Below are positions 4,808 through 49,080 of a DNA stretch of 64,000 nucleotides, in pieces. A program made the translations under genes and the position numbers. Position 1 is the first letter of the stretch. Every line of letters starts with the position of its first letter. The DNA lies in NCBI GenBank assembly GCA_963789715.1, contig CAWBLQ010000006.1, positions 431,007-495,006 of the forward strand, read 5' to 3'. Below the pieces are notes generated by a model. It was not told the DNA's origin and did no database searches. It was given only the letters and a program-made list of their open reading frames with translations. The DNA comes from Candidatus Binataceae bacterium (GTDB lineage: Bacteria > Desulfobacterota > Binatia > Binatales > Binataceae).

Positions 4808-7275
4808 GCTCCAGGCACCGCCTGCATTAGATAGACGAGAGTAAAGATGATGATCCACACGACGTCGACGAAATGCCAGTAAAGTCCCGCGAGCTCGACT
4901 GACAGCGCGCGCGACTGGCCGAGCTTGCCGGTCATAGCGGCCGCCAACAGCACCGACAGCCAGATCACCCCGATCGCGACGTGGCCACCGTGAAACCCGA
5001 CCAGCACGAAGAACGACTGCGAGAACAGGTTGGTCGTGAGCCCCATGCCCTCGCGGTAGAAGCTGGTGAACTCGTAAACCTGCCCACACAGAAAAATCAG
5101 TCCGAACGTGACCGTGCCGGCGAGCCAGATTCGCTCCCATCGCTTGTCGCCGCGCTGTGTGGCCGCGAGCGCCAGCACCATCAGCAGCGAACTCATCAGC
5201 AGGATGAAGGTGCTGAACGAGGTCAGCGGGATGTTGAGAATTTTCGGTCCCGGCCCTGAGACGCTGCGCGATTTGTAAACGATGAAGGTCGAGATCAAGC
5301 TCGCGAAGAACACGCACTCTGAGCCGATGAACGACCACACGCCAATTTTGCGCACGTCGATTCCGCCCGACGAAGGCGCGTGCTCCGGATCGTGCGACGC
5401 CTCGCCAAAGTCCGCGTACTCGAATCCCATCCCGATGACCGACAAGACCACGACCGCCGCGCCGATGAAAACGATGCGATACCATTCGATGATGAGACCG
5501 AGGCCCATCATTCCCGCGCCAAGACTCATCACCAGCGGGAAGATCGAAGGCGCCGGCATGTGGATGTCCGCAACGGAGACCGGTTCGCTGGGCGGTTGCG
5601 ACGGCGCCTGCCCCGACATGTAAGCGGCGACGCCGCGCGAGCCGGCGCGCCGGTACTTCAGAATCCACCACGCGTCGCGGCCGCGAATTTGCGGGATCGT
5701 CGCGAAGTTGTACGCCGGCGGCGGCGACGGCGTGGACCATTCGAGGCTGCGGCCGTCCCATGGATCGGCGAGCGCGCGCTCCCCGCTGATGAGACTCTTG
5801 AAAATGTTGATGTAGAAAAGCAGGAACGCGATGCCGAGAATGAACGCGCCGATCGTCTCGAGCTGGTTGATACGCGTCCAGCCCATATCCGCGCCGTAGG
5901 TGTAGGTGCGCCGCGGCATCCCCCACATCCCGAGAATATGCATCGGGAAAAACGTGAGGTTGAATCCGATCACCGTCAGCCAGAACTGCCACTTGCCCAG
6001 CCGCTCGCCGAGCATCCGTCCGCTGATCTTCGGCCACCAGTAATAGAACGCCGACAGGATCGCGAACATCACGCCGCCGAACAGCACGTAGTGAAAGTGC
6101 GCGACGACGAAGTACGAATCGGTCTGCTGGAGATCAATCGGCGCCGATGCGTGCATGATTCCGCTGAGGCCGCCGATCGTGAACTCGAGCACCATCCCGA
6201 GCGCGAAGTAGAGTGCGGTCGTCATGCGCAGCGAGCCGCCCCAGACCGTTGCGATCCAGCTGAAAACTTTCACGCCGGTGGGAATCGCGATAAGCATCGA
6301 TGTGATCGCAAACGCCGAGTCTGCGACCGGGCCCATTCCGGTCGCGAACATGTGATGTCCCCACACGCCGTACGACAGGAACGCGATCAGGCAGATCGAG
6401 TACGCCATCATCGGATAGCCGAATAGCGGCTTGCGCGAGAACGTGGGAATGACTTCCGAGATGATCCCAAAGGCCGGCAGCGCCATGATGTACACTTCGG
6501 GATGACCGAACAACCAGAACAGATGCTGCCACAGGATCGGCGTGGCGCCCGCCGACGCGACGTAAAAGTGGGTGTCGAAGAAACGATCGAAGAGCAGGAA
6601 GATCAGTCCGATGGTGAGCGCCGGAAACGCGATCAGAATCAGGATTGACGTTACCATCAGCGCCCAGATGAACATCGGCATGCGCATGTACGTCATGCCC
6701 GGCGCGCGCATCGCGATGATCGTAGTCAGGAAGTTGAGGCCGGTGAGAACCGTCGAAGTGCCCGACACCAGGAGCCCGATCACCCACCAATCGATCGCAA
6801 GGCCTGGCGTGAAGTAGCGCTCGGTCAGGTTCGCATAGCCGAACCAGCCCGCATCGGGAAGGCCGCCGCGAATCCAGCCGAGATGCAGCAGGATGCCCGC
6901 AACCAGCGCCAGCCAGAAGCTCAATGCATTGAGCCGCGGGAACGCGACGTCGCGCGCGCCTATCTGCAGCGGGATAAGGAAGTTACCGAAAAATCCGAGC
7001 AGCAGCGGCATGACGACGAGGAAGATCATCGTCGTCCCATGCATCGTGAAAAACGCGTTGTAGGTCGCCGCCGACAGCGCGTGATTGTCGGGCCGCCACA
7101 GCTGTACGCGAATCGCCATCGCCTCGAGTCCGCCGAACGCCATGAAGAACAGCGCGCTGGCGAGGTACATGACGGCGACGCGCTTGTGATCGATCGTCAT
7201 CAGCCATCCGACTATTCCGCCACCTTCGAGGTAGCTCGGCTGATGCACTGGGATTGGTTTCGGTTGCGCAGCCAT
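4804..7275 (-). CDS. ctaD: Cytochrome c oxidase subunit I fused to subunit III (caa3-type CtaD-CtaE fusion)
   Basis: 823 aa. Haem-copper oxidase subunit I core motifs (WFFGHPEVYI, HHMF, VAHFHYVL), then a C-terminal seven-helix subunit-III-like extension, as in Thermus/Rhodothermus caa3. Confidence 0.9.
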   Translation of the reverse strand: MAAQPKPIPVHQPSYLEGGGIVGWLMTIDHKRVAVMYLASALFFMAFGGLEAMAIRVQLWRPDNHALSAATYNAFFTMHGTTMIFLVVMPLLLGFFGNFLIPLQIGARDVAFPRLNALSFWLALVAGILLHLGWIRGGLPDAGWFGYANLTERYFTPGLAIDWWVIGLLVSGTSTVLTGLNFLTTIIAMRAPGMTYMRMPMFIWALMVTSILILIAFPALTIGLIFLLFDRFFDTHFYVASAGATPILWQHLFWLFGHPEVYIMALPAFGIISEVIPTFSRKPLFGYPMMAYSICLIAFLSYGVWGHHMFATGMGPVADSAFAITSMLIAIPTGVKVFSWIATVWGGSLRMTTALYFALGMVLEFTIGGLSGIMHASAPIDLQQTDSYFVVAHFHYVLFGGVMFAILSAFYYWWPKISGRMLGERLGKWQFWLTVIGFNLTFFPMHILGMWGMPRRTYTYGADMGWTRINQLETIGAFILGIAFLLFYINIFKSLISGERALADPWDGRSLEWSTPSPPPAYNFATIPQIRGRDAWWILKYRRAGSRGVAAYMSGQAPSQPPSEPVSVADIHMPAPSIFPLVMSLGAGMMGLGLIIEWYRIVFIGAAVVVLSVIGMGFEYADFGEASHDPEHAPSSGGIDVRKIGVWSFIGSECVFFASLISTFIVYKSRSVSGPGPKILNIPLTSFSTFILLMSSLLMVLALAATQRGDKRWERIWLAGTVTFGLIFLCGQVYEFTSFYREGMGLTTNLFSQSFFVLVGFHGGHVAIGVIWLSVLLAAAMTGKLGQSRALSVELAGLYWHFVDVVWIIIFTLVYLMQAVPGA

Positions 7276-7285
7276 GCGACGCTCC

Positions 7286-8314
7286 CTATTTCAGACTCTC
7301 GAGATACGCGACCAGGGCGTTCAGCTTCGGCCCCGGCAGAAGCAGCGCCGGCATATTCGCGCCCGGCTTGACTTCCTGTGGATTCTGGATCCACTTCGCG
7401 ACGTTTTCGGGCGTGTTCTTCAGCACCCCTGCGGCCAGCGTCGTGCGGCTGCCGAAATGCGTCAGGTCGGGTCCGATGTAGCCCTTCGAGATGCCCTGGA
7501 CCATGTGGCAGGTCGTGCATGGACTGTCGGCGAATACCTTTGCGCCGTCAGACGCCAACAGATCGCTCGGCGGCGTTGCAGCCGGACCGGCAAGCTGCGC
7601 CCGATCCCAATTCGCGAAATCTTCAGGCGAGTCGACGAACGTCCGAAAGCGCATGTTCGCGTGCGACAGCCCGCAAAACTCGGCGCATTGCCCCGGGTAC
7701 ATTCCCGGTACCGTCGCGACGAATGTCAGCTCGTTGATTTGGCCCGGCACCACGTCGCGTTTGCCGCCAAGTTGCGGGACCCAGAAGCTGTGAATGATGT
7801 CGGCGGATTCCAGCATCAGGCGAATCGGCCGGTTGACGGGAATGTGCAGTTCGTTGCCGGTTTTCGCGCCGTCCGGATACTGAAACTCCCACCACCACTG
7901 GTGCGCGATCACTTTGATCTCCAGCGCGCCCGATGGTGCGACCGCCGGCTGCGAGCGGAAGATGGTGCGTATCGTCGGCACCGAGATCATCAGCAGCACG
8001 AGCGTGGGGCCGAGCGTCCAGGCAATCTCCAGGCCCAGATCGGACGACGCGGTCGAAGCCGGGGCCGCCTCGCCGACGCGAGAAGAGAAGACGAACACGG
8101 CGAGGACAAACGCGGAGACCACGATCGCGAGGATAATCGCGTCCCACGCCGTCACTTCGATGTAAAGACTCTGAATCCACTGCGCCAGGTCCGACTTCGG
8201 CGCGAGCGTAGTCATCGGCCGGTCTTTCGCCGAGCACCCTGCAATAGCCAGTGCAATAGCCATTTGCATAGCTACTGTGGCGATCAAATGCGTGCTTGAA
8301 CCGCGCCTGTTCAT
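7286..8314 (-). CDS. ctaC: Cytochrome c oxidase subunit II with C-terminal cytochrome c domain (caa3 subunit IIc)
   Basis: CuA-site motifs (HSFWVPQLGGK, CAEFCGLSHANM) and a C-terminal CTTCH haem-binding motif. I chose the start at MNRRG…, overlapping the actF stop as ATGA. The track ORF extends further upstream. Confidence 0.85.
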   Translation of the reverse strand: MNRRGSSTHLIATVAMQMAIALAIAGCSAKDRPMTTLAPKSDLAQWIQSLYIEVTAWDAIILAIVVSAFVLAVFVFSSRVGEAAPASTASSDLGLEIAWTLGPTLVLLMISVPTIRTIFRSQPAVAPSGALEIKVIAHQWWWEFQYPDGAKTGNELHIPVNRPIRLMLESADIIHSFWVPQLGGKRDVVPGQINELTFVATVPGMYPGQCAEFCGLSHANMRFRTFVDSPEDFANWDRAQLAGPAATPPSDLLASDGAKVFADSPCTTCHMVQGISKGYIGPDLTHFGSRTTLAAGVLKNTPENVAKWIQNPQEVKPGANMPALLLPGPKLNALVAYLESLK

Positions 8315-17850: not shown

Positions 17851-17915
17851 TTGGGCAGGGGTGACCCCTGCACCCGGTGACAGGATGAAGATGCGGGACT
17901 TTCGTCCCTGTTCGA
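17851..17915 (+). repeat. R1 palindromic REP-like repeat, copy 1 (GCAGGGGTGACCCCTGC hairpin + GGGACTTTCGTCCC hairpin)
   Basis: About 85% identical to copies at 23940-24005 (same orientation) and 43441-43500 (reverse orientation). All three copies are intergenic. Confidence 0.7.
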
Positions 17916-21625: not shown

Positions 21626-22783
21626 TCAGTTCGCGGCGGCGGAGCGTTCGGCTATCAGGCGGTCTAGTTCGGCGCGGAGCTTGGGTAGGACTTCTTCGTA
21701 GCCGTAGTAGCCTAGCTTGCGATCCTTTTTCTTGAGGTTCACCGTGGTCGGGCCGCACCATAGGCCGAGGTCGGCGTCGTCGGTTTCGCCCGGGCCGTTC
21801 ACGCGGCATCCCATGATCGCGATCGTGATCTTGTGCTTCTCGGCGTAGGTCGTGAGTTCCTTAACCTGCTGCGCCAGCTCGACGAATTTCTCGTTCTCGA
21901 CGCGCGAGCACGACGGGCACGAGATGATATTGAGTCCCGCGCCGAAGTCGGGCACCGAGATGAACCTGCCGGCGGCGACGTCCTCGATTATCTTGTGCCC
22001 GACGAGCACTTCCTCGTGCTTGCGCTCGTTGGGGAGCGTGAGCGAGACGCGAATCGTGTCGCCGATATCCTGCGCGAGCAGCTTCTCGAACGCGATGCGG
22101 GTCTTGATGATGCCGTCGGGCGGCAAGCCCGCCTCGGTGACGCCGAGATGAAGCGGCACGTCGGGCCGGCGCTGCGAGAATCGCCGATTCGCGTCCATCA
22201 CCTTGTTGGGATCGGAATCCTTGAGCGACACGACGAAGCGGGTGAAGCCGAGCTGGTCCATCAGATCGCAGTGGTACGCGGCGGACTCGACGATCGCCGC
22301 CAGCTGATCGCCGGGGTACTTGTCGAGGAAGGCCGGCGCCACCGAGCCGCAGTTGACGCCGATGCGGATGGCGACGTCGTTGTCGCGCGCGACCTCGACC
22401 AGCCATTTCACTTTTTGCTCGATGGTCTTCGACTTCTCGATGTGGTGCAGATGGCCGGGGTTGTAGCGAATCTTGTCGACGTGCGGCGCGACCCGGTCGG
22501 CGATTTTATAGTTCTCCTGCAGATCGACCGACAGCACGACGCCTTTGGTCTGCCGGCGGATTTCCTTCAGCGCCGGAATTTCCTTCTCACTGTCCGTCGC
22601 GATCCGGACGATTCCCGCGCCGGCGTTGGCGAGCTGATGCGCCTGCGCGATGGTCTCGTCGATGTCGATGGTGCGCGTCGCGCACATCGATTGGACAACT
22701 ACCGGCGCATCGCCGCCGACCCTGGTCCCGCCAATCGTGATCTGCCGTGTCTTCCGATCTTTTCGTACTAAAGCCATTGCCAC
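21626..22783 (-). CDS. ispG: 4-hydroxy-3-methylbut-2-en-1-yl diphosphate synthase (MEP pathway)
   Basis: 385 aa. Typical GcpE pattern (QSMCATRT…, three Cys of the 4Fe-4S site CPSCSR…GCRVNGPGE). Confidence 0.95.
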
Positions 22784-22822: not shown

Positions 22823-23155
22823 CTAGTGCTTGTGTTCGTCCGCCACCGCCATCGCGATCGCGCCGTGACTGAACGCCGCGCCCGCGCGCATCGCGGCCGC
22901 AACCCAGACCGCCTCCGCGATTTCCTGATCGGTGCATCCCTTTTCTTTGGCGCGCGTGACGTGCGCCTCGATACACCACGGGCACTGCGTGACATGCGCG
23001 GCGGTAATCGCCATCAGCTCTTTGGTCTTGCTGGGAATCGCGCCGTCCTTGAAAACTTCCTTGTCGAATTCGAGGAAGCCCTTGAAGGCGTCGGGCGCAT
23101 TCTGGCGCAGGTTGCGGAGATACTTCGAGGTTTCCTTGCCGTAAAAGTCAGCCAT
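22823..23155 (-). CDS. Carboxymuconolactone decarboxylase / AhpD-like family protein
   Basis: 110 aa from MADFYGK…, with the AhpD-core CPWCI-EAH motif. Strong RBS (AGGAGGA) 8 nt upstream of this ATG. The track ORF's longer N-terminus is unlikely. Confidence 0.7.
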   Translation of the reverse strand: MADFYGKETSKYLRNLRQNAPDAFKGFLEFDKEVFKDGAIPSKTKELMAITAAHVTQCPWCIEAHVTRAKEKGCTDQEIAEAVWVAAAMRAGAAFSHGAIAMAVADEHKH

Positions 23156-23493
23156 GGTGATCCTCCTCGGCGTTTCTTTCGCGCTGATAATCCAACTATA
23201 GCAGAGCGCCTGCGCGTATCGATAACAACTGTGTTTCGCGCGTCCGCGCCGTTCGCCTACGCTAATTTTAGCGGCATCGCCAGACAAACTCTGCTTATCC
23301 AAGGCTAGCAACGGCAAATCTACGCTGTGACTTTTCCCTTGCAATGAGTCAGCGTTCTCACTAAGTTTCTTTCTCCGTCGATAATTATTAGACGGAACGA
23401 GGCATCGCATAAGAGATGCTGGTGTTCGCCGATCGCGTACCGCAAAAATTCGACGTTCAAGCTCTTCGCTCGGGGGAGGGAGGAAGCTGAACA

Positions 23494-23940
23494 ATGAGTA
23501 CCGTGGTCTCCACAATCGCCGCCGCCGATCCGCGTCCGTTTCCCGACGTTATCCTGCGCAGCCAGTTTTTCGAGATGATGGGCACGCGAGCGCTGTCGAG
23601 CGAGCAGCGGCTGATGCTCGCAGTGCTGGCCGACGCGATCAACATCGTGCAGGAATTCGGCGGCTCGTCGAGCCTGCGCAAACGCAACTCGTTCAACGAC
23701 GCGTGGAACTGGTTCTTCGCTAAGGGCGTGTCGTGTCCGCTGTCGTTTCTGAGCGTGTGCGACGCGCTGGGGATCGACGCGCAGGGCTTGCGATGGCGCC
23801 TGTCGGAACTCGTCGCAGGCCGCGGCGGCACTCCGCTGCGGCTGCGGCTGAAGGAAGCGAGTCGGATGCAGCGGCTCACGGTGAATCGAGTGCGGCGGCG
23901 CGATCCGCGCAAGACGCATCGCGGCACTCGGGCGCGGTAG
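23494..23940 (+). CDS. Hypothetical protein (148 aa), first gene of a three-gene unknown cluster
   Basis: Strong RBS GGGAGGGAGGAAG before the ATG. Host-like codon usage. No domain recognised. Confidence 0.5.
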   Translation: MSTVVSTIAAADPRPFPDVILRSQFFEMMGTRALSSEQRLMLAVLADAINIVQEFGGSSSLRKRNSFNDAWNWFFAKGVSCPLSFLSVCDALGIDAQGLRWRLSELVAGRGGTPLRLRLKEASRMQRLTVNRVRRRDPRKTHRGTRAR

Positions 23941-24005
23941 GCAGGGGTGACCCCTGCACCCAGTTACTAAGACAAGGATGCGGGACTTCGTCCCTGTTAG
24001 AACTC
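23940..24005 (+). repeat. R1 palindromic REP-like repeat, copy 2
   Basis: See the 17851-17915 entry. Lies between gene 1 and gene 2 of the SprT-like cluster. Confidence 0.7.
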
Positions 24006-24168
24006 CAATGGCGAGGATGGAACGGCGCTCGGCTAGGGTTTAGCTTTTCGTGGCTAAAACGTGTCAAAACGGCTCTTGACGGGCGATTTTCAGCATAAAA
24101 CGCAATCAAACGGCGGTATAAACCTGGATTCTGCCGATCGGGTTTGACTGTGACGAGCGCGCCTCCAT

Positions 24169-24738
24169 ATGATCTCCCTCACACCTGATATCGGAGGTCG
24201 GCTGCTCGTGCGAATGATTATTCCCCCTGTCGCCCATCGCCGCGAAATTGATCGCAACCTCGCCGAATTTTTCCGCGGCCATCGTGCCGCACATTTCAAC
24301 CGCGCCATCTCCTCGATGTGCCGATACTTCAACGTGCGCCGCCCGCGTATCGAATGGTTCGAGTACATCGACTGGGGCAAGACGGCAGGCCGGACATACG
24401 AAGACGGCCGCATCCATCTCGTGCATCCGGAAAACTGGAAACGCGGCCGCGTCTATTTCAGCGAGCGCAAGTGGATTCAAATGATCTACCACGAGATGGG
24501 TCATTTCCTGCTCTGGAGCGACCCCGAACGCAAGGCTGACATCTTCTCGCGCCGGATGATTACCGGGCTGAGAGGGCCGGGCCGCCGGCATGCCGCGCGC
24601 TCGCGCAGCCGGTCCGGAATCTCGAGCACGCGACGCGCGGCAAACCGCGTCCGCAAGCGCCGAGCACGCATCTCGGTCGCACGAAAGTCCAGGCGCTTAG
24701 CGCGCGGCGCCGCTCGTAAAACTCGGCGGGTGGCCTGA
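24169..24738 (+). CDS. SprT-like zinc metalloprotease domain protein with long arginine-rich C-terminal tail
   Basis: The core (…GRTYEDGRIHLVHPENW…ERKWIQMIYHEMGHFLLW) parallels the E. coli SprT segment around HELAHLLVW. About 60 C-terminal residues are Arg/Ser-rich (RSRSRS…RKRRAR…). Confidence 0.45.
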   Translation: MISLTPDIGGRLLVRMIIPPVAHRREIDRNLAEFFRGHRAAHFNRAISSMCRYFNVRRPRIEWFEYIDWGKTAGRTYEDGRIHLVHPENWKRGRVYFSERKWIQMIYHEMGHFLLWSDPERKADIFSRRMITGLRGPGRRHAARSRSRSGISSTRRAANRVRKRRARISVARKSRRLARGAARKTRRVA

Positions 24739-25289
24739 TGCCGCAGAAGCCCACCGTCGAAAACCGCTGGTGGGTCGAAACCACCTTCAAGAAACCCAAA
24801 CGGGCCAAGTCCGAGACCGAGATGCCGCAGTTGCCGGTCGCGATGGCCTTCTATCAGGTCGCGCAAGACTACGATCAGGATCGCGCCAAGGAAGATCTCA
24901 CCGACAACAACCTGCGCATCGCGCGCGAGGCCAACCCGCCGCAGGGCGATTGGGCCTACGTCGCGATGACCGAGCAGCACGCGCCGGCCAATGTGATCAA
25001 GCGCGTCAAGGACGAGTTCCGCATCCCGCGCGAGGCGCGCGGTATCGTGATCGATCACGGCCGCGTGGTGCGGCTGCTGATCTGCGGCCCGCAGCTCGAA
25101 GACTGGATGCTGGACATCACGCTCGGCGACGAACCGTCGGTTGACGCCTACGTCTGGTCGGTGATGTACCGTGAAAGAATCTTTCGCCGCGCCGAAGAGG
25201 CGCTGCGCCTGGCGCGCAAATGGGCGATCAACCTGCTCCAATTCCCGCCCCCACGAGACGAGCCTTTCCGCGGCTCCCTGCTGACATAA
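24738..25289 (+). CDS. Hypothetical protein (183 aa), translationally coupled to the SprT-like gene
   Basis: Its ATG overlaps the upstream TGA (TGATG). No recognised domain. Confidence 0.45.
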   Translation: MPQKPTVENRWWVETTFKKPKRAKSETEMPQLPVAMAFYQVAQDYDQDRAKEDLTDNNLRIAREANPPQGDWAYVAMTEQHAPANVIKRVKDEFRIPREARGIVIDHGRVVRLLICGPQLEDWMLDITLGDEPSVDAYVWSVMYRERIFRRAEEALRLARKWAINLLQFPPPRDEPFRGSLLT

Positions 25290-25378: not shown

Positions 25379-26524
25379 ATGAAATCCCTGTCGCTCGTGC
25401 TCCGAAACCTCGCCCGCAACAAGCGCCGCACCATCCTCACCATGCTCTCGATCACCGTCTCGGTGTTCGTGTTCGCCTCGCTGATCAGCCTGCCCGGCCT
25501 GCTCAACCAGGTGCTGCGCGACCGCGCCAACTCGCGGCGGCTCATCTGCCACAGCAAGGCCGGCATGCTCTACTTGCTGCCGGAGTCTTACCGCCGGCGA
25601 ATCGAGACCGTGCGCCACGTCGAGGCAGTGGCGGCGTACAGCGTCTTCCTGTCGACCTACCGCGATCCGAGCCAGCAGCTCGGCGTGCTCGCGGTGGACG
25701 ACGATCATATCCGCGAAATATTTCCCGATTGGGATGTCAGTCCGGAAACCGAGCGCGAATTCCAAAGCCTGCGCACCGCGGCGCTGGTCGCAACTAATCT
25801 GATGAAGCTTTACGGCTGGAAAGTCGGCCAGACGATCATGCTGCGCGGCACGCAGTATCCGGTCGATCTCCAGCTTACGATCGTGGGCGTGCTCAACGAG
25901 GATGCGTCCGGGCCGCGAATCATCTTCAGGCGCGACTACATGGAAGAACTGCTCGGCAGGCCGGGCACCGCCAACCTGTTCTGGGTGAAAATTGACAGCT
26001 CCAAATCGGCGCCCGAAGTGATCGCCGCCGTCGACGAGATGTTTGCCAACTCGGAGAACGAGACCGCCACCGAAACCGAAGTCGCGCTGATCAAGAACGA
26101 AGTCGGCAGCAACCTGAGCCTGCTGCTCAACGGCGCAAAATTTCTCGCCGCGATCGTCATCTTCACAATCGCGCTGGTCGCCGCCAACACGGCCGCGATG
26201 GCGGTGCGCGAGCGGCGCCAGGAAATCGCCGTGATGCGCGCGATTGGATTCACGCGCAACTCGATCGTCGCGCGAATCCTGGTCGAGGGTCTGATTGTCG
26301 GCGTGACCGGCGGCGCGCTCGGATGCGTCCTCGCAATTCTGGGATTCGACCTGCTGCCGCACGTTTCCGGAGCGCTGGGCCCGCTCGCGCTCGCGATGAC
26401 GATGCAGCCGCGAACGATCGCCTACAGTTTCGGAGTCGCCGCGCTGATAGGAGCGGCCAGCGGCTTCATCCCGGCAGCGCTGGCGACCCGCGGCGACATC
26501 TCAACCGAACTCCGCGCCATCTAG
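25379..26524 (+). CDS. ABC transporter permease, FtsX/MacB/LolE family (no ATPase partner adjacent)
   Basis: 381 aa. N-terminal TM, periplasmic domain, C-terminal FtsX-like 3-TM bundle (…AVMRAIGF…). Confidence 0.8.
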   Translation: MKSLSLVLRNLARNKRRTILTMLSITVSVFVFASLISLPGLLNQVLRDRANSRRLICHSKAGMLYLLPESYRRRIETVRHVEAVAAYSVFLSTYRDPSQQLGVLAVDDDHIREIFPDWDVSPETEREFQSLRTAALVATNLMKLYGWKVGQTIMLRGTQYPVDLQLTIVGVLNEDASGPRIIFRRDYMEELLGRPGTANLFWVKIDSSKSAPEVIAAVDEMFANSENETATETEVALIKNEVGSNLSLLLNGAKFLAAIVIFTIALVAANTAAMAVRERRQEIAVMRAIGFTRNSIVARILVEGLIVGVTGGALGCVLAILGFDLLPHVSGALGPLALAMTMQPRTIAYSFGVAALIGAASGFIPAALATRGDISTELRAI

Positions 26525-27440: not shown

Positions 27441-27860
27441 CTATTTTTTGAACTCGACGGTGGCCGTCCCGGTCACGAGGCGCTCCGACTCCTCGTTCTC
27501 CATCCAGACGTCGATCTCGGCTGTGCGGTCCGCGGGATTCTTGTTGGTGATGAAGCCGTGAATCGTGATCGTGTGGTCGGGCTGCACCGGCACGCGATAG
27601 GTCGTGCTCATCCGGGCGAGCCACGCGTTGCTCGAGCCGATCCAATCCGTCACCAGCTTCGACAGCAGCCCGAGGCTCATGTTGCCCGGGAGGATCATCC
27701 CCGGCAGCCCTTCCTTCTTCGCGGCTTCGTCGTCGGTAAAGCGGCCCGCGCCTTCGCCCATGCCCATCGTTTTGGCGTAGGCGCGGCACTGATCTTTCGT
27801 GACGAACAGCTCGAGCGGGCCGAGCGTGTCGCCGATATTGATCTCTTCGAAACTTTTCAC
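27441..27860 (-). CDS. MaoC-like (R)-hydratase hot-dog domain protein
   Basis: 139-aa MaoC dehydratase pattern. Overlaps the upstream MaoC-N-like gene by 4 nt. Confidence 0.8.
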   Translation of the reverse strand: MKSFEEINIGDTLGPLELFVTKDQCRAYAKTMGMGEGAGRFTDDEAAKKEGLPGMILPGNMSLGLLSKLVTDWIGSSNAWLARMSTTYRVPVQPDHTITIHGFITNKNPADRTAEIDVWMENEESERLVTGTATVEFKK

Positions 27861-28303
27861 GTGCGGTTCATGAAGCGATGGTCGATGTGGGCCAGCACTT
27901 CGTCCTTCTGGTTCTTCAGGGTCGAGCGGATCACGACGAAGACCATGGTGCCCGTGCGTCCGGTCTTCTCGTAAATTTCCTTCACGTGGGAGCTCAGCGT
28001 TATATTGTCGCCGGGCCTGATCGGCGCGACGAACTCGACGTCCTTGCCGGCGTCGAAGCCGCGGCGGCCGAAGCGCGGGACGTTCTCGAAGAAGTGCCGG
28101 CCGTTGCGGAACGTCACGGCGAACGACGGCGGCGCGACGATACCTCCGTACGGCCCTTTCTTCGCCGCCTCGTCGTCGGTGTAAATCGGATTGGTCTCGC
28201 CGAGCGCCGCGCAGTAGCGTTTGATCTTCTCGGCCTTGACCTCGACGGGCTCGGTCACTTCGAAGACCTTGTTGATCAGCGCCGGATCGTAATTGACTGC
28301 CAT
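27857..28303 (-). CDS. MaoC N-terminal-like hot-dog protein (partner subunit of a heteromeric enoyl-CoA hydratase)
   Basis: 148 aa. Hot-dog fold lacking the catalytic pattern of its neighbour. Paired arrangement as in ChsH1/ChsH2-type hydratases. Confidence 0.7.
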   Translation of the reverse strand: MAVNYDPALINKVFEVTEPVEVKAEKIKRYCAALGETNPIYTDDEAAKKGPYGGIVAPPSFAVTFRNGRHFFENVPRFGRRGFDAGKDVEFVAPIRPGDNITLSSHVKEIYEKTGRTGTMVFVVIRSTLKNQKDEVLAHIDHRFMNRT

Positions 28304-29484: not shown

Positions 29485-30654
29485 TTACTGATTGCTGAGG
29501 ATAAGCGTCGCGCCCGAATGGCGCGTGCCGAGCGTTCCGCCGGTGCCGTGCGCGAGCGCGATTTTGCAATCCTTGACCTGGCGCGGACCGCATTCGCCGC
29601 GCAGTTGTTTGGTGGCCTCGATGACGAGGAAGATTCCGCGCATCCCCGGATGGTTCGACGACAGTCCGCCGCCGTCGGTGTTGATCGGAAATTCGCCGTC
29701 GAAGCGCAGCCGTCCGCCCGACACGAACGCGCCCCCTTCGCCGCGCTTGCAGAAGCCGAGATTCTCGAGCGTGACCAGCACCGTGATCGTGAACGAGTCG
29801 TAGATCATCGCCATGTCGATGTCTTTGTGGGCGACGCCGGCGCGCTCGAACGCGAGCCGGCCCGATTGGGCCGCCGCGATTTCGAGAAAATCGCGCTGCC
29901 CGCGCGCCGCGTGGCGCACCGTCTCGCCCGCGCCCAGGATGTAAACCGGCCGCTTCTTCAAATCGCGCGCGCGCTCCGCCGAGGTGATCACCAGCGCGCC
30001 GCCGCCGTCGCTGATGATGCAGCAATCGAGCAGATGCAGCGGCGACGAGATGATTCGCGACGCGAGCACGTCTTCGACGGTTATCGGGTCGCGGTACTTC
30101 GCGGCCGGATTCATCGACGCATGCAGACGCATCGTGACCGCTATTTCAGCGAGCTGCTGCGAGGTCGTGCCGTAGTCGTGCATATGGCGCTGCGCAACCA
30201 TCGCGTACGACCCGACCGTCGTGGGCCCGAACGGAATCTCGTACTGGTCGCACGGATCGCCTGCGCCGCCGCCGGCGCCCCCGCCGCCCGTGCCGATCGC
30301 AAACCGCGACGAGGCCGCCGTCGAGCCATAGACCACCACGCATACGTCGCACAGCCCGGCGTGAATGGCGGCGGCCGCGTGCGCGGTGTGCGCGACGAAT
30401 GACGACCCGCCGATCGAAGTCGAGTCGACGAAGTTGGGCGTCAGGTTCAGGTAATCGCAGAAGCCGACGATTCCCATCCCGCTCATCCCGATTCCGGTAG
30501 TGCACAGCCCGTTGACGTCCTTGATCGTCAAGCCGGCGTCGTCCAGCGCGCCACGCACGCTCTCGGCCATTATCTGAAACAAAGTTTTGTCCGGCGCGAA
30601 GCGGGTGGGATGCTCGAACACGCCGGCCACTGCGGTCTTGCGGCTTAAACTCAT
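29485..30654 (-). CDS. Thiolase-like protein of the SCP-x / lipid-transfer-protein type
   Basis: 389 aa. Thiolase fold with an N-terminal nucleophile region and C-terminal HGTG-like motif (ALAHGTGGTLG). Confidence 0.8.
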   Translation of the reverse strand: MSLSRKTAVAGVFEHPTRFAPDKTLFQIMAESVRGALDDAGLTIKDVNGLCTTGIGMSGMGIVGFCDYLNLTPNFVDSTSIGGSSFVAHTAHAAAAIHAGLCDVCVVVYGSTAASSRFAIGTGGGGAGGGAGDPCDQYEIPFGPTTVGSYAMVAQRHMHDYGTTSQQLAEIAVTMRLHASMNPAAKYRDPITVEDVLASRIISSPLHLLDCCIISDGGGALVITSAERARDLKKRPVYILGAGETVRHAARGQRDFLEIAAAQSGRLAFERAGVAHKDIDMAMIYDSFTITVLVTLENLGFCKRGEGGAFVSGGRLRFDGEFPINTDGGGLSSNHPGMRGIFLVIEATKQLRGECGPRQVKDCKIALAHGTGGTLGTRHSGATLILSNQ

Positions 30655-43440: not shown

Positions 43441-43500
43441 GCGTAAGCCCGCATCCCTTCTTCTCCTGATACCGGGTGCAGGGGTCACCCCTGCCGCGGG
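43441..43500 (-). repeat. R1 palindromic REP-like repeat, copy 3 (reverse orientation)
   Basis: Reverse complement matches copies 1 and 2. Lies between the GH13 gene and pepN. Confidence 0.7.
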
Positions 43501-47433: not shown

Positions 47434-49080
47434 GTGTATAAGTGGACCTTGCGCAGCTGCGTCGCTGCGATGATGCTTGTTCTGTTCGCGACGACCGCGG
47501 CGCGCGCGGACAGCGTCTCGGTTGTGAACAGCCCCGCTGGTCTGGGCGCCAACGATTCCATCGTGTGGTCGCAGTTGGGGGCCGACGCGGCGACTTTGAC
47601 CGCTAGTCCCACTTTCACTTCCAGCGGCGGATTGTCCGGCTCCATTTCGTTGACGGGTCCGAACAGTTTGGTCGCCGTTGTATGCCCCGAGACACCATGC
47701 AGCTGGAACTTGAGCGGCAGTTCAGGTTTCAGCGCGGGCGACAAACTGATCTGGACGGCGGATACCGGCAACAGCGGCAACGGGCCGCTGACGTTGAACT
47801 TCGCAAAAGGCGTGTCGGGTGCGGGCGCCTTTATCCAGGCGGATGGTCCCGCTCAGTTCACCGTACAGATCCAGGCGTTCAACGGCGGAACTTCTCTGGG
47901 TACGTTCACTATAACGAGTGACCTTAACGGCGACGCTACCTTCATAGGCGTCCTCGATAGTACCGGCCCCAACATCACCAGCACCGTTTTCAGCATTATT
48001 CCCGTTTCCCCAGCCACCACCTGCACCGGCGACTGCGCCGACTTTGCGCTGGATACGGTATCTTTGAAGGTTCCAATCGGCGCGACGCCCACCCCGACCG
48101 CGACGGCGACCGCAACTCGAACAGCGACGGCGACGGCGACCACAACGGCAACCGCAACTGGATCTGCGACACCAACCGCGACCGCAACCAAGACTGCAAC
48201 GCCGACAGCGACCGCGACTAGCAGCGTAACTCCGACTGCGACCGCTACCAGCACCGCAACGGCAACGGCGACCACAACGGCAACCGCAACTGGATCTGCG
48301 ACACCAACCAAGACTGCAACGCCGACAGCGACCGCGACTAGCAGCGTATCTCCGACTGCAACTGCTACCAGCACCGCTACCGCGACGGCGACAGCAACTG
48401 GATCTGCGACGCCGACGGCCAGCGCAACGTCAACCGGATCGGCGACGCCGAGCGCTACGGCAACTGTGACTGCTACGGCGACGCCGACCGCGACTAGCAC
48501 CGTTACTCCGACTGCAACTGCTACCAGCACTGCTACCGCGACGGCGACAGCAACTGGATCGGCGACGCCTACCGCTACGGCGACGGTAAATGCTACGGCG
48601 ACGGCAACCAACACTGCAGCAGCGACGGCGACTGCAACATCTAGCGCGACTCCGACCCCGACGGAGACTGCAACTGCGACCGTTACAGCGACTTCAACGG
48701 CCACGACGACACCCACGTCGACGCCAACCGCGGTTCCTGAGTTACTGAAGATCACCCCGCCGTCCGAGAATTTCGGCAAGGTGAAAGTAGGCGGGTCCAA
48801 AGAGGAATCGTTTATACTCAGCAATCCGGCCAAGAATGGACCGCCGATCACCTTCGCGAGCCCGATCTCATTTTCGGTTCCGGTGACCCAGCCGCAGGAA
48901 TTCGGATTTCCCTCGAAGTCCAACAACTGCCCGACACAGCTGTTCCCGAAAAAAACTTGCAAGCTAACGGTGGTGTTCGTCCCGGCCATGACCGGTCCGC
49001 GGCCGTCCTCCGCGGTAACCGTCTTTGACAACGCGACGGGCGCCCCTCAGATGATCCCGCTAAGCGGGGACGGGAAATAG
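47434..49080 (+). CDS. Secreted cell-surface protein: N-terminal beta-rich domain, about 230-aa Thr/Ala/Pro/Ser low-complexity linker, C-terminal choice-of-anchor-D (ASH-like) domain
   Basis: Signal peptide. Mucin-like (TATATP…) linker. The C-terminal segment (…FGKVKVGGSKEESFILSNPAKNGPPITFASPISF…CPTQLFPKKTCKLTVVFVPAMTGPRPSSAVTVF…) follows the choice-of-anchor D/ASH pattern. Confidence 0.55.
   Translation: MYKWTLRSCVAAMMLVLFATTAARADSVSVVNSPAGLGANDSIVWSQLGADAATLTASPTFTSSGGLSGSISLTGPNSLVAVVCPETPCSWNLSGSSGFSAGDKLIWTADTGNSGNGPLTLNFAKGVSGAGAFIQADGPAQFTVQIQAFNGGTSLGTFTITSDLNGDATFIGVLDSTGPNITSTVFSIIPVSPATTCTGDCADFALDTVSLKVPIGATPTPTATATATRTATATATTTATATGSATPTATATKTATPTATATSSVTPTATATSTATATATTTATATGSATPTKTATPTATATSSVSPTATATSTATATATATGSATPTASATSTGSATPSATATVTATATPTATSTVTPTATATSTATATATATGSATPTATATVNATATATNTAAATATATSSATPTPTETATATVTATSTATTTPTSTPTAVPELLKITPPSENFGKVKVGGSKEESFILSNPAKNGPPITFASPISFSVPVTQPQEFGFPSKSNNCPTQLFPKKTCKLTVVFVPAMTGPRPSSAVTVFDNATGAPQMIPLSGDGK
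48090..48730 (+). repeat. Imperfect DNA tandem repeats (about 100-120-bp unit) encoding the Thr/Ala-rich linker
   Basis: Recurring units such as ACGGCGACCACAACGGCAACCGCAACTGGATCTGCGACACCAACC…AAGACTGCAACGCCGACAGCGACCGCGACTAGCAGCGTA.CTCCGACTGC are visible at least four times. Confidence 0.7.

Follow-up and report, generated by a model that had tools for sequence, protein, structure and literature searches.

We analyzed a 64,000-nt stretch of chromosomal DNA from Candidatus Binatus/Binataceae (the window; GenBank assembly GCA_963789715.1, contig CAWBLQ010000006.1, positions 431,007 to 495,006 of the forward strand) and found that two of its small genes, here called genes 2 and 3, belong together as a conserved pair. 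As read from the DNA, the two make up an operon driven by a sigma-70 promoter of its own, one that looks constitutive. Gene 2 is, as far as its sequence goes, best described as the founding member of a previously undescribed zincin-like family. The initial annotation had placed both in a three-gene cluster with an upstream gene, gene 1, and had centered that cluster on a SprT-like zinc protease. The gene 2–gene 3 pair stands as the robust core of the finding, whereas gene 1 is usually 1.5–2.7 kb away and is missing in some lineages.

All three open reading frames (ORFs) were confirmed on the plus strand, at 23494–23940 (148 aa), 24169–24738 (189 aa as listed), and 24738–25289 (183 aa), and all are genuine conserved coding genes. 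Their nearest homologs come from Binatus/Binataceae metagenome-assembled genomes (MAGs), and their alignments have a mean column identity of 73% (gene 1), 84% (gene 2 core), and 69% (gene 3). The combination had been thought to lack a named counterpart, and this is correct: Pfam, NCBIfam, PADLOC, and PHROGs returned no family match for any of the three proteins. These databases hold no gene 1-like, gene 2-like, or gene 3-like family, and the three are newly defined here. Small HExxH enzymes that have a partner and phage roots are, as a kind of system, already familiar. The features on which the argument draws are the following.

23339–23367, plus strand: promoter-like element of gene 1, TTGCAA-17 nt-TAAGTT (9-locus alignment)
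23494–23940, plus strand: gene 1, encoding a 148-aa basic protein with a helix-turn-helix (HTH)-like region (about residues 81–110) and a basic C-terminus (961 homologs)
23940–23967, no strand assigned: "R1", a 28-nt palindromic intergenic repeat resembling repetitive extragenic palindromic (REP) elements, GGCAGGGGTGACCCCTGCACCC, overlapping the gene 1 stop codon by that codon's last base
24144–24173, plus strand: sigma-70-type promoter of the gene 2–gene 3 operon, TTGACT-18 nt-TATGAT (consensus scan and 11-locus alignment)
24193–24197, plus strand: Shine-Dalgarno sequence GGAGG of gene 2, 10 nt upstream of GTG 24208
24208–24738, plus strand: gene 2 with corrected start, 176 aa, zincin-like core (residues 1–122) and polybasic tail (67/67 loci)
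24490–24528, plus strand: putative metal site of gene 2, H95-E96-M-G-H99...D105-P-E107 (HExxH-x7-E; 59-sequence alignment)
24574–24735, plus strand: polybasic disordered C-terminal tail of gene 2, 54 aa with 22 Arg+Lys and no Asp or Glu (composition, alignment, and AlphaFold 2)
24738–25289, plus strand: gene 3, 183 aa, disordered N-terminus and alpha+beta core (about residues 45–170)
24759–24779, plus strand: ENRWWVE motif in the disordered N-terminus of gene 3 (cross-clade alignment)

Gene 3 directly follows gene 2 in approximately 76 of 80 related loci, wherever the contig reaches far enough. In these 80 loci the pair is fixed beside ispG, and two copies were seen in three MAGs only, on separate contigs. 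The translational coupling (TGATG) noted at first for the window is a conserved trait, with the 1-nt stop/start overlap kept in 42 of 58 related loci and a gap of 4–86 nt in the remainder. Further chromosomal clades surfaced in a metagenome scan using phage-type sequences. On a 105-kb contig with metabolic genes and 54% GC (L097; loci are numbered with an L), the gene for a tail-less 125-aa gene-2-like protein lies 8 nt ahead of the gene for a 195-aa gene-3-like protein. In a high-GC clade (L098, L099/L108, L103, and L104; 70–75% GC), the gene-3-like gene lies 0.7–1.8 kb downstream of the gene-2-like gene, and in L099/L108 an opposite-strand short-chain dehydrogenase/reductase (SDR) gene stands between them. 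In L107 (positions 2–772), the end of a gene-2-like gene and an entire gene-3-like gene share one ORF without a stop, an apparent fusion; L107 and L097 also share a downstream alpha/beta-hydrolase gene. Since the linkage survives rearrangement across clades and the two genes appear fused in L107, there is strong evidence that their proteins work together. The tail-less L097 pair shows that, at the level of gene arrangement, the pairing is independent of the tail. Upstream of the gene-2-like gene, the high-GC clade has another small basic protein (L108 5423–5779 and L099 430–858) with a coiled-coil N-terminus and a winged-helix-like C-terminus. We considered it as a gene 1 homolog and rejected it, as it is not homologous; it could be a functional analog.

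The gene 3 protein gives few clues of its own. It has no catalytic-looking invariant pattern, and a search of PDB with its sequence profile returned noise only. In its predicted fold it is similar to small inhibitor or immunity proteins that bind other proteins, the nearest folds being PsiB (a plasmid SOS inhibitor, 3nct) and AcrIIA11. Within the ENRWWVE motif, N9, W11, W12, and V13 are invariant in all clades, including proteins only 32–35% identical.

Gene 2 has 746 homologs. When 1.84 billion representative proteins were searched exhaustively by HMMER with a profile lacking the tail (E<=1e-3), the wider family came to only 153 clusters, and motif conservation was measured on an alignment of 59 of its sequences, down to 24% identity. 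The HExxH zincin-type motif that had been recognized in gene 2 is sound. It reads HEMGH at 24490–24504 (residues 95–99); P46, H95, H99, and E107 show no variation and E96 almost none, and the family motif is HExxH-x7-E(xKA). An AlphaFold 2 model (mean predicted local distance difference test score, pLDDT, 65.8, with 72–93 over much of the core) has two helices and then two strands, after which comes the HExxH helix, predicted at residues 86–104 counted from GTG 24208; a break follows, and another helix begins near E107. Sub-threshold Pfam matches of the family are dominated by zincin families: SprT-like, M10, MPTase-PolyVal, M50, YgjP-like, DUF4344, BSP, M60, M90, and M48. Among the 59 members, weak matches numbered 20 for SprT-like, 9 for Peptidase_M10, 6 for MPTase-PolyVal, and fewer for YgjP-like and others. 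A PDB sequence-profile search with gene 2 gave no matches at E<=10, and PHROGs returned nothing consistent for the wider family. Five "long" family hits (P0365, P0386, P0391, P0473, and P0375) were discarded as real architectures, since frameshifted or chimeric ORF calls seem to account for them; P0375 may be a second, noisy gene 2–gene 3 fusion.

The start of gene 2 and its promoter both had to be moved. Position 24208 is a start codon in all 67 loci that could be parsed (GTG in 62, ATG in 4, TTG in 1), and an MRxxxPP N-terminus stands at the extreme start of almost all family members; on these grounds gene 2 starts at GTG 24208 (24208–24738, 176 aa). The ATG at 24169, given initially as the start, lies inside the -10 hexamer TATGAT. 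The promoter, with -35 TTGACT at 24144–24149 and -10 TATGAT at 24168–24173, has 10 of 12 consensus matches, and neither hexamer varies among the 11 aligned loci, whichever gene is upstream. A TTGACG near 24078 had been suggested as the promoter; the conserved -35 is the TTGACT. The GGAGG of gene 2 is kept in 10 of the 11 aligned loci, its final two G invariant, and is followed by GTGCGAATGATT. Because the promoter is invariant whatever stands upstream, gene 1 falls outside the gene 2–gene 3 transcription unit.

The tail of gene 2 has 54 aa, a net charge of +22, and no cysteine, and the isoelectric point (pI) of the gene 2 protein is 11.9. Across 67 loci it has a median length of 55 aa, is 41% Arg+Lys, and is essentially without acidic residues; in the AlphaFold 2 model its pLDDT is below 55. 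It had been asked whether the Arg-rich tail might be an artifact of out-of-frame reading, and this is refuted. The reading frame is retained in every homolog, and in 11 pairwise comparisons the ratio of nonsynonymous to synonymous substitution rates (dN/dS) is 0.21–0.41 for the tail versus 0.02–0.24 for the core, from which we conclude that the tail is translated and under purifying selection. Gene-2-like proteins of the high-GC clade have a shorter polybasic tail ending in RRRRRSRSR. The phage relatives examined, like L097, have none.

Many distant members of the gene 2 family are 115–135 aa long and lack the tail. All six distant-member contexts that we examined were phage genomes, with the following genes nearby.

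L081/L082: portal, terminase, HNH, RNA ligase
L084: DnaB, ERF, PDDEXK, single-stranded DNA-binding protein (SSB), dCMP deaminase, ribonucleotide reductase
L085/L086: Prim-Pol, tape measure
L087: integrase, terminase
L088: SSB, HNH-like
L089: lysozyme-like

In L081/L082, a 145-aa gene 1 homolog is directly upstream of the gene 2 homolog with a 4-nt overlap, and hhalign aligned it to gene 1 at 97.5% (E 7e-12), basic C-terminus included. In L087, two gene-1-like paralogs (2598–2963 and 7707–8096) flank the gene-2-like gene (6001–6366) within 3 kb; they are diverged, and hhalign gave 80.6% for one of them. L084 may be a third co-occurrence of gene 1-like and gene 2-like genes, a weak one (E 0.003). 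Other gene-1-like genes in IMG/VR have no gene 2 and adjoin M15 endolysins, a VRR-NUC nuclease, or a DnaA-like HTH protein. A gene-3-like ORF was not found in the phage loci with gene-2-like genes, PHROGs returned nothing consistent for the gene-1-like phage proteins, and neither the gene 2 core nor gene 3 had a tblastn match among cultivated phage genomes. By its homologs, gene 1 belongs to an undescribed family also present in phages. Its association with gene 2 is, in terms of gene order, real in some phages and not obligatory.

On the chromosome, gene 1 has regulatory sequences of its own. In its promoter-like element, TTGCA and the downstream TA are invariant in the 9-locus alignment, and a conserved leader of approximately 125 nt (23368–23493) runs from the element to the gene. 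RNAalifold gave no supported consensus structure for this leader with the sequences used, and the leader holds a possible hairpin, TCCGTC...GACGGA. The strong ribosome-binding site attributed to gene 1 is indeed there, as a conserved upstream GGAGG. The protein has a pI of 11.6, with +12 in its last 38 residues, and residues 81–121 have sub-threshold matches to HTH_20 (E 0.09) and, in the PDB profile search, to a DinJ antitoxin chain (E 0.029). An operator common to the gene 1 and gene 2 promoters was sought and rejected, the one candidate being a 20-nt, 75% repeat that is not conserved.

The R1 repeat reported between genes 1 and 2 is also present, with copies at 23940–23967 and 17854–17885 and an inverted one at 43464–43495, and it is found downstream of gene 1 in L010 and L020 as well. 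Its 7-bp hairpin (dG -15.1 kcal/mol, z = -1.6) has no T-run, and R1 is consequently not a canonical terminator.

For the function of the pair, our general model is a nucleic-acid-tethered zincin-type metalloprotease (gene 2) with a partner subunit (gene 3), which we hold tentatively, at a little under an even chance. The gene 2 core would be a minimal zincin-type metallohydrolase of about 120 residues with the motif HExxH-x7-E, in which zinc would be bound via H95, H99, and probably E107, with E96 as the presumed catalytic base. The disordered tail of about 55 residues, with its charge of +22, would most likely tether the enzyme to DNA or RNA. The gene 3 protein is envisaged as a non-enzymatic alpha+beta partner present 1:1 with gene 2, a regulatory or targeting subunit that would contact it and may dock through the invariant N-terminal ENRWWVE peptide. 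The most likely activity would be proteolysis of a nucleic-acid-bound protein, by analogy with ImmA/ImmR, IrrE/DdrO, and CapP/CapH, and the gene 1 protein is a candidate regulator or substrate. Phages also carry members of the family; there, tail-less gene 2 lies in early replication/recombination modules and, in one lineage, stands right after a gene-1-type HTH-like protein.

A more specific version of this model is doubtful: that genes 2 and 3, with gene 1 loosely attached, are a domesticated phage module that forms a new nucleic-acid-tethered protease switch with an adaptor or inhibitor subunit and a cleavable HTH-like regulator. In that reading the zincin would be a minimal one with the HExxH-x7-E motif, the adaptor or inhibitor would dock by its ENRWWVE peptide, and each of the three parts would belong to a family not described before. 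The module is conserved in Binataceae and at least two other bacterial clades. Should the general model hold, the protease-based switches known from phage and bacterial regulation would be extended by one new minimal zincin family and one new family of partner proteins, and it would be an example of a phage early gene turned into a fixed core gene in an uncultured bacterial lineage.

Protease-plus-regulator switches are known from IrrE/DdrO of Deinococcus (PMC6868357), from ImmA/ImmR-type modules such as that of ICEBs1 (PMC10233336), and from CapP/CapH of CBASS (bioRxiv 10.1101/2022.04.27.489752). What our genes share with these, as in the phage locus L081/L082, is a small HExxH gene on a mobile element that is directly preceded by a gene for a small DNA-binding-type protein, the putative regulator. 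However, the proteases of these switches are M78/COG2856 and their repressors are XRE proteins, whereas gene 1 is not XRE and has no Pfam match; the counterpart genes 1 and 2 are usually non-adjacent in Binataceae; and cleavage is putative here. By sequence comparison, gene 2 is a member of none of the IrrE, ImmA, CapP, and SPRTN families.

ArdC-type proteins of conjugative plasmids combine a single-stranded DNA-binding domain with a zincin domain (Pfam MPTase-PolyVal). They resemble gene 2 in having a zincin-like domain, a nucleic-acid-binding part (putative in gene 2), and a mobile-element context, and the six MPTase-PolyVal matches mentioned above, all weak and sub-threshold, point the same way. 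Gene 2 differs in that it has no ArdC N-terminal domain and has a disordered basic extension rather than a folded DNA-binding domain.

Several observations weigh against the protease-switch model. For the enzyme, there is no Peptidase_M78 signal in the gene 2 family (1 of 59 members, at E 0.11), and the putative third ligand, whose role as a ligand is presumed, is just 8 residues past the second His, which is unusual. Not every HExxH protein is a protease. The apparent fusion in L107 is on a single 1.9-kb metagenome contig, and no DNA-repair or defense genes are nearby to indicate a pathway. For gene 1, the HTH call depends on the two sub-threshold matches given above. In most Binataceae, gene 1 is upstream of gene 2 with unrelated genes between them, namely a family III CoA-transferase gene, sometimes joined by an NmrA-like gene, and a spacer of 1.5–2.7 kb. 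A short spacer (approximately 230 bp in the window, with the region 23941–24143) is limited to the window, L013, L061, and L062. Comparison of this short spacer with L001 (8546–10000) and L010 (7343–10000) found no scar of a CoA-transferase deletion. Gene 1 is absent in nine more distant loci (L045, L047, L048, L055, L063, L066, L073, L078, and L079), where a decarboxylase-like gene directly precedes gene 2, and no gene 1 was found near the gene-2-like genes of the other chromosomal clades. Three of the six phage contexts have no gene-1-like gene in their flanks, and many phage gene-1-like genes have no gene 2 nearby.

The question that these points raise is whether gene 1 is unrelated to genes 2 and 3, so that its proximity in Binataceae would be inherited synteny and its adjacency in phages a coincidence among small early genes. 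We give this explanation somewhat less than an even chance, and participation of gene 1 at all is close to an even call. Its own promoter-like element and leader, the one or two unrelated genes before gene 2 in most relatives, its absence from the nine Binataceae-type loci and the other chromosomal clades, and the mostly gene 2-free phage homologs all fit independence. Yet these are two rare families, and they lie no more than 3 kb apart in two independent phage lineages (L081/L082 and L087), with L084 as a weak third case and with co-occurrence in most Binataceae. As for the three genes forming a single unit in other genomes, the separate promoter of genes 2 and 3 argues against it, while the 4-nt overlap of gene-1-like and gene-2-like genes, in one phage lineage, is in its favor.

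The initial reading of gene 2 as SprT leads to a different explanation, in which gene 2 would act in bacteria as a DNA-dependent protease of the SprT/Spartan/Wss1 type and clear DNA–protein crosslinks, its Arg-rich tail playing the part of the basic DNA-binding region of SPRTN. In SPRTN, a basic region at residues 220–230 is needed for DNA binding and activity (PMC9240642). SPRTN and gene 2 have in common a basic region after the protease domain, and an HExxH core with a basic tail parallels SPRTN architecture (PMC9240642). SprT-like zincins (E. coli SprT/YggI, PF10263, and the SprT domain of SPRTN) also share with gene 2 a small HExxH domain after a strand-turn-strand "..aG......I.L.P..". SprT-like is the commonest weak Pfam match in the family, a few homologs carry a SprT family label in JGI annotation, and the phage relatives lie among replication/recombination genes. 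Against a single E. coli SprT, hhalign gave 42% probability over 54 columns, in the register that had been proposed at the outset.

Closer comparison does not bear the SprT assignment out. The window protein has no Pfam SprT-like match at E<=1. The best match in the family has an E value of 0.002, and none of the 20 weakly matching members exceeds the Pfam gathering threshold (25.6 bits for SprT-like, PF10263/COG3091), whereas the E. coli SprT control scored 82.5 bits (E 2.4e-23) and also matched Zn_ribbon_SprT. When a true SprT profile (7 sequences from plasmid SprT genes) was used, hhalign matched only 23 columns, those surrounding the HExxH helix, with a probability of 40%. PHGxEW, which contributes a downstream His ligand approximately 12 residues after HExxH, is invariant in these seven sequences; gene 2 lacks it, with WSDPERKAD in that place and no core His downstream of H99. 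The C-terminal Cys4 ribbon of bacterial SprT, or the zinc-binding subdomain that SPRTN has, is also absent, and gene 2 has its Cys-free tail instead. No structural match to SPRTN or Wss1 was found for gene 2, and a PDB search for SprT-family sequences gave zinc-finger matches to the ribbon only. Gene 2 further differs from SprT-like zincins in its candidate third ligand, a Glu 8 residues after the second His, and in its obligatory partner gene 3, which has no counterpart in SprT systems. No repair genes are nearby.

Thus, SprT-like is the nearest, unproven neighbor of gene 2, the resemblance being on this evidence at the motif level only, and we consider the crosslink protease quite unlikely. 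As things stand, the finding has no bearing on bacterial DNA–protein crosslink repair. It does correct an annotation trap, as the label "SprT family metalloprotease" on several public homologs is unjustified.

It is highly unlikely that genes 2 and 3 are a domesticated phage-derived toxin–immunity or toxin–antitoxin pair, with a zincin toxin neutralized by the gene 3 protein. Translational coupling of the two genes and the phage relatives of gene 2 would suit such a pair. However, the locus is fixed beside ispG family-wide, neither patchy nor mobile, and has no PADLOC match. The six phage loci lack gene 3 beside gene 2, a combination that would be lethal were gene 2 a toxin; one clade has an opposite-strand gene between the two; and in L107 they are apparently fused.

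Very improbable, finally, is a non-hydrolase structural protein associated with nucleic acid or ribosomes, in which HExxH-E would be a structural metal site and gene 3 an RNA- or ribosome-binding partner: the extreme basicity (pI 11.9), a tail like ribosomal-protein extensions, a constitutive-type promoter, and a core-gene distribution are compatible with it, but the catalytic Glu E96 is nearly invariant, as active zincins typically show, there is no tail at all in L097 or in the phage relatives examined, and there are no translation-related neighbors.

The neighbors of the three-gene region are housekeeping or metabolic genes, and the regional GC of 0.56–0.66 is the same as that of the surroundings. 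The flanking genes are listed here.

21626–22783, minus strand: ispG
22823–23158, minus strand: carboxymuconolactone-decarboxylase-like gene
25379–26524, plus strand: FtsX-type permease
27441–28303, minus strand: MaoC-like genes

An Rfam scan of the window returned no matches. ARAGORN called an 87-nt tRNA-Glu(CTC) at 29829–29915 on the minus strand, where Rfam had no tRNA at its gathering threshold. This call may be a false positive, since the predicted tRNA is unusually long and long ORFs cover it on both strands. Intergenic direct and inverted repeats of 33–74 nt (84–94% matching) cluster at 19–21.6 kb, with one arm at 37.7 kb, and are unrelated to R1; the pairs are 19285–19345/20551–20611, 19669–19702/20579–20612, 20462–20535/37751–37824, and 20623–20657/21506–21540. 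Within the ORF at 47434–49080, positions 48052–48771 are highly repetitive coding sequence with units of the type GCGACGGCGACC and periods of 6–30 nt, which suggests a low-complexity Thr/Ala/Pro-type repeat protein.

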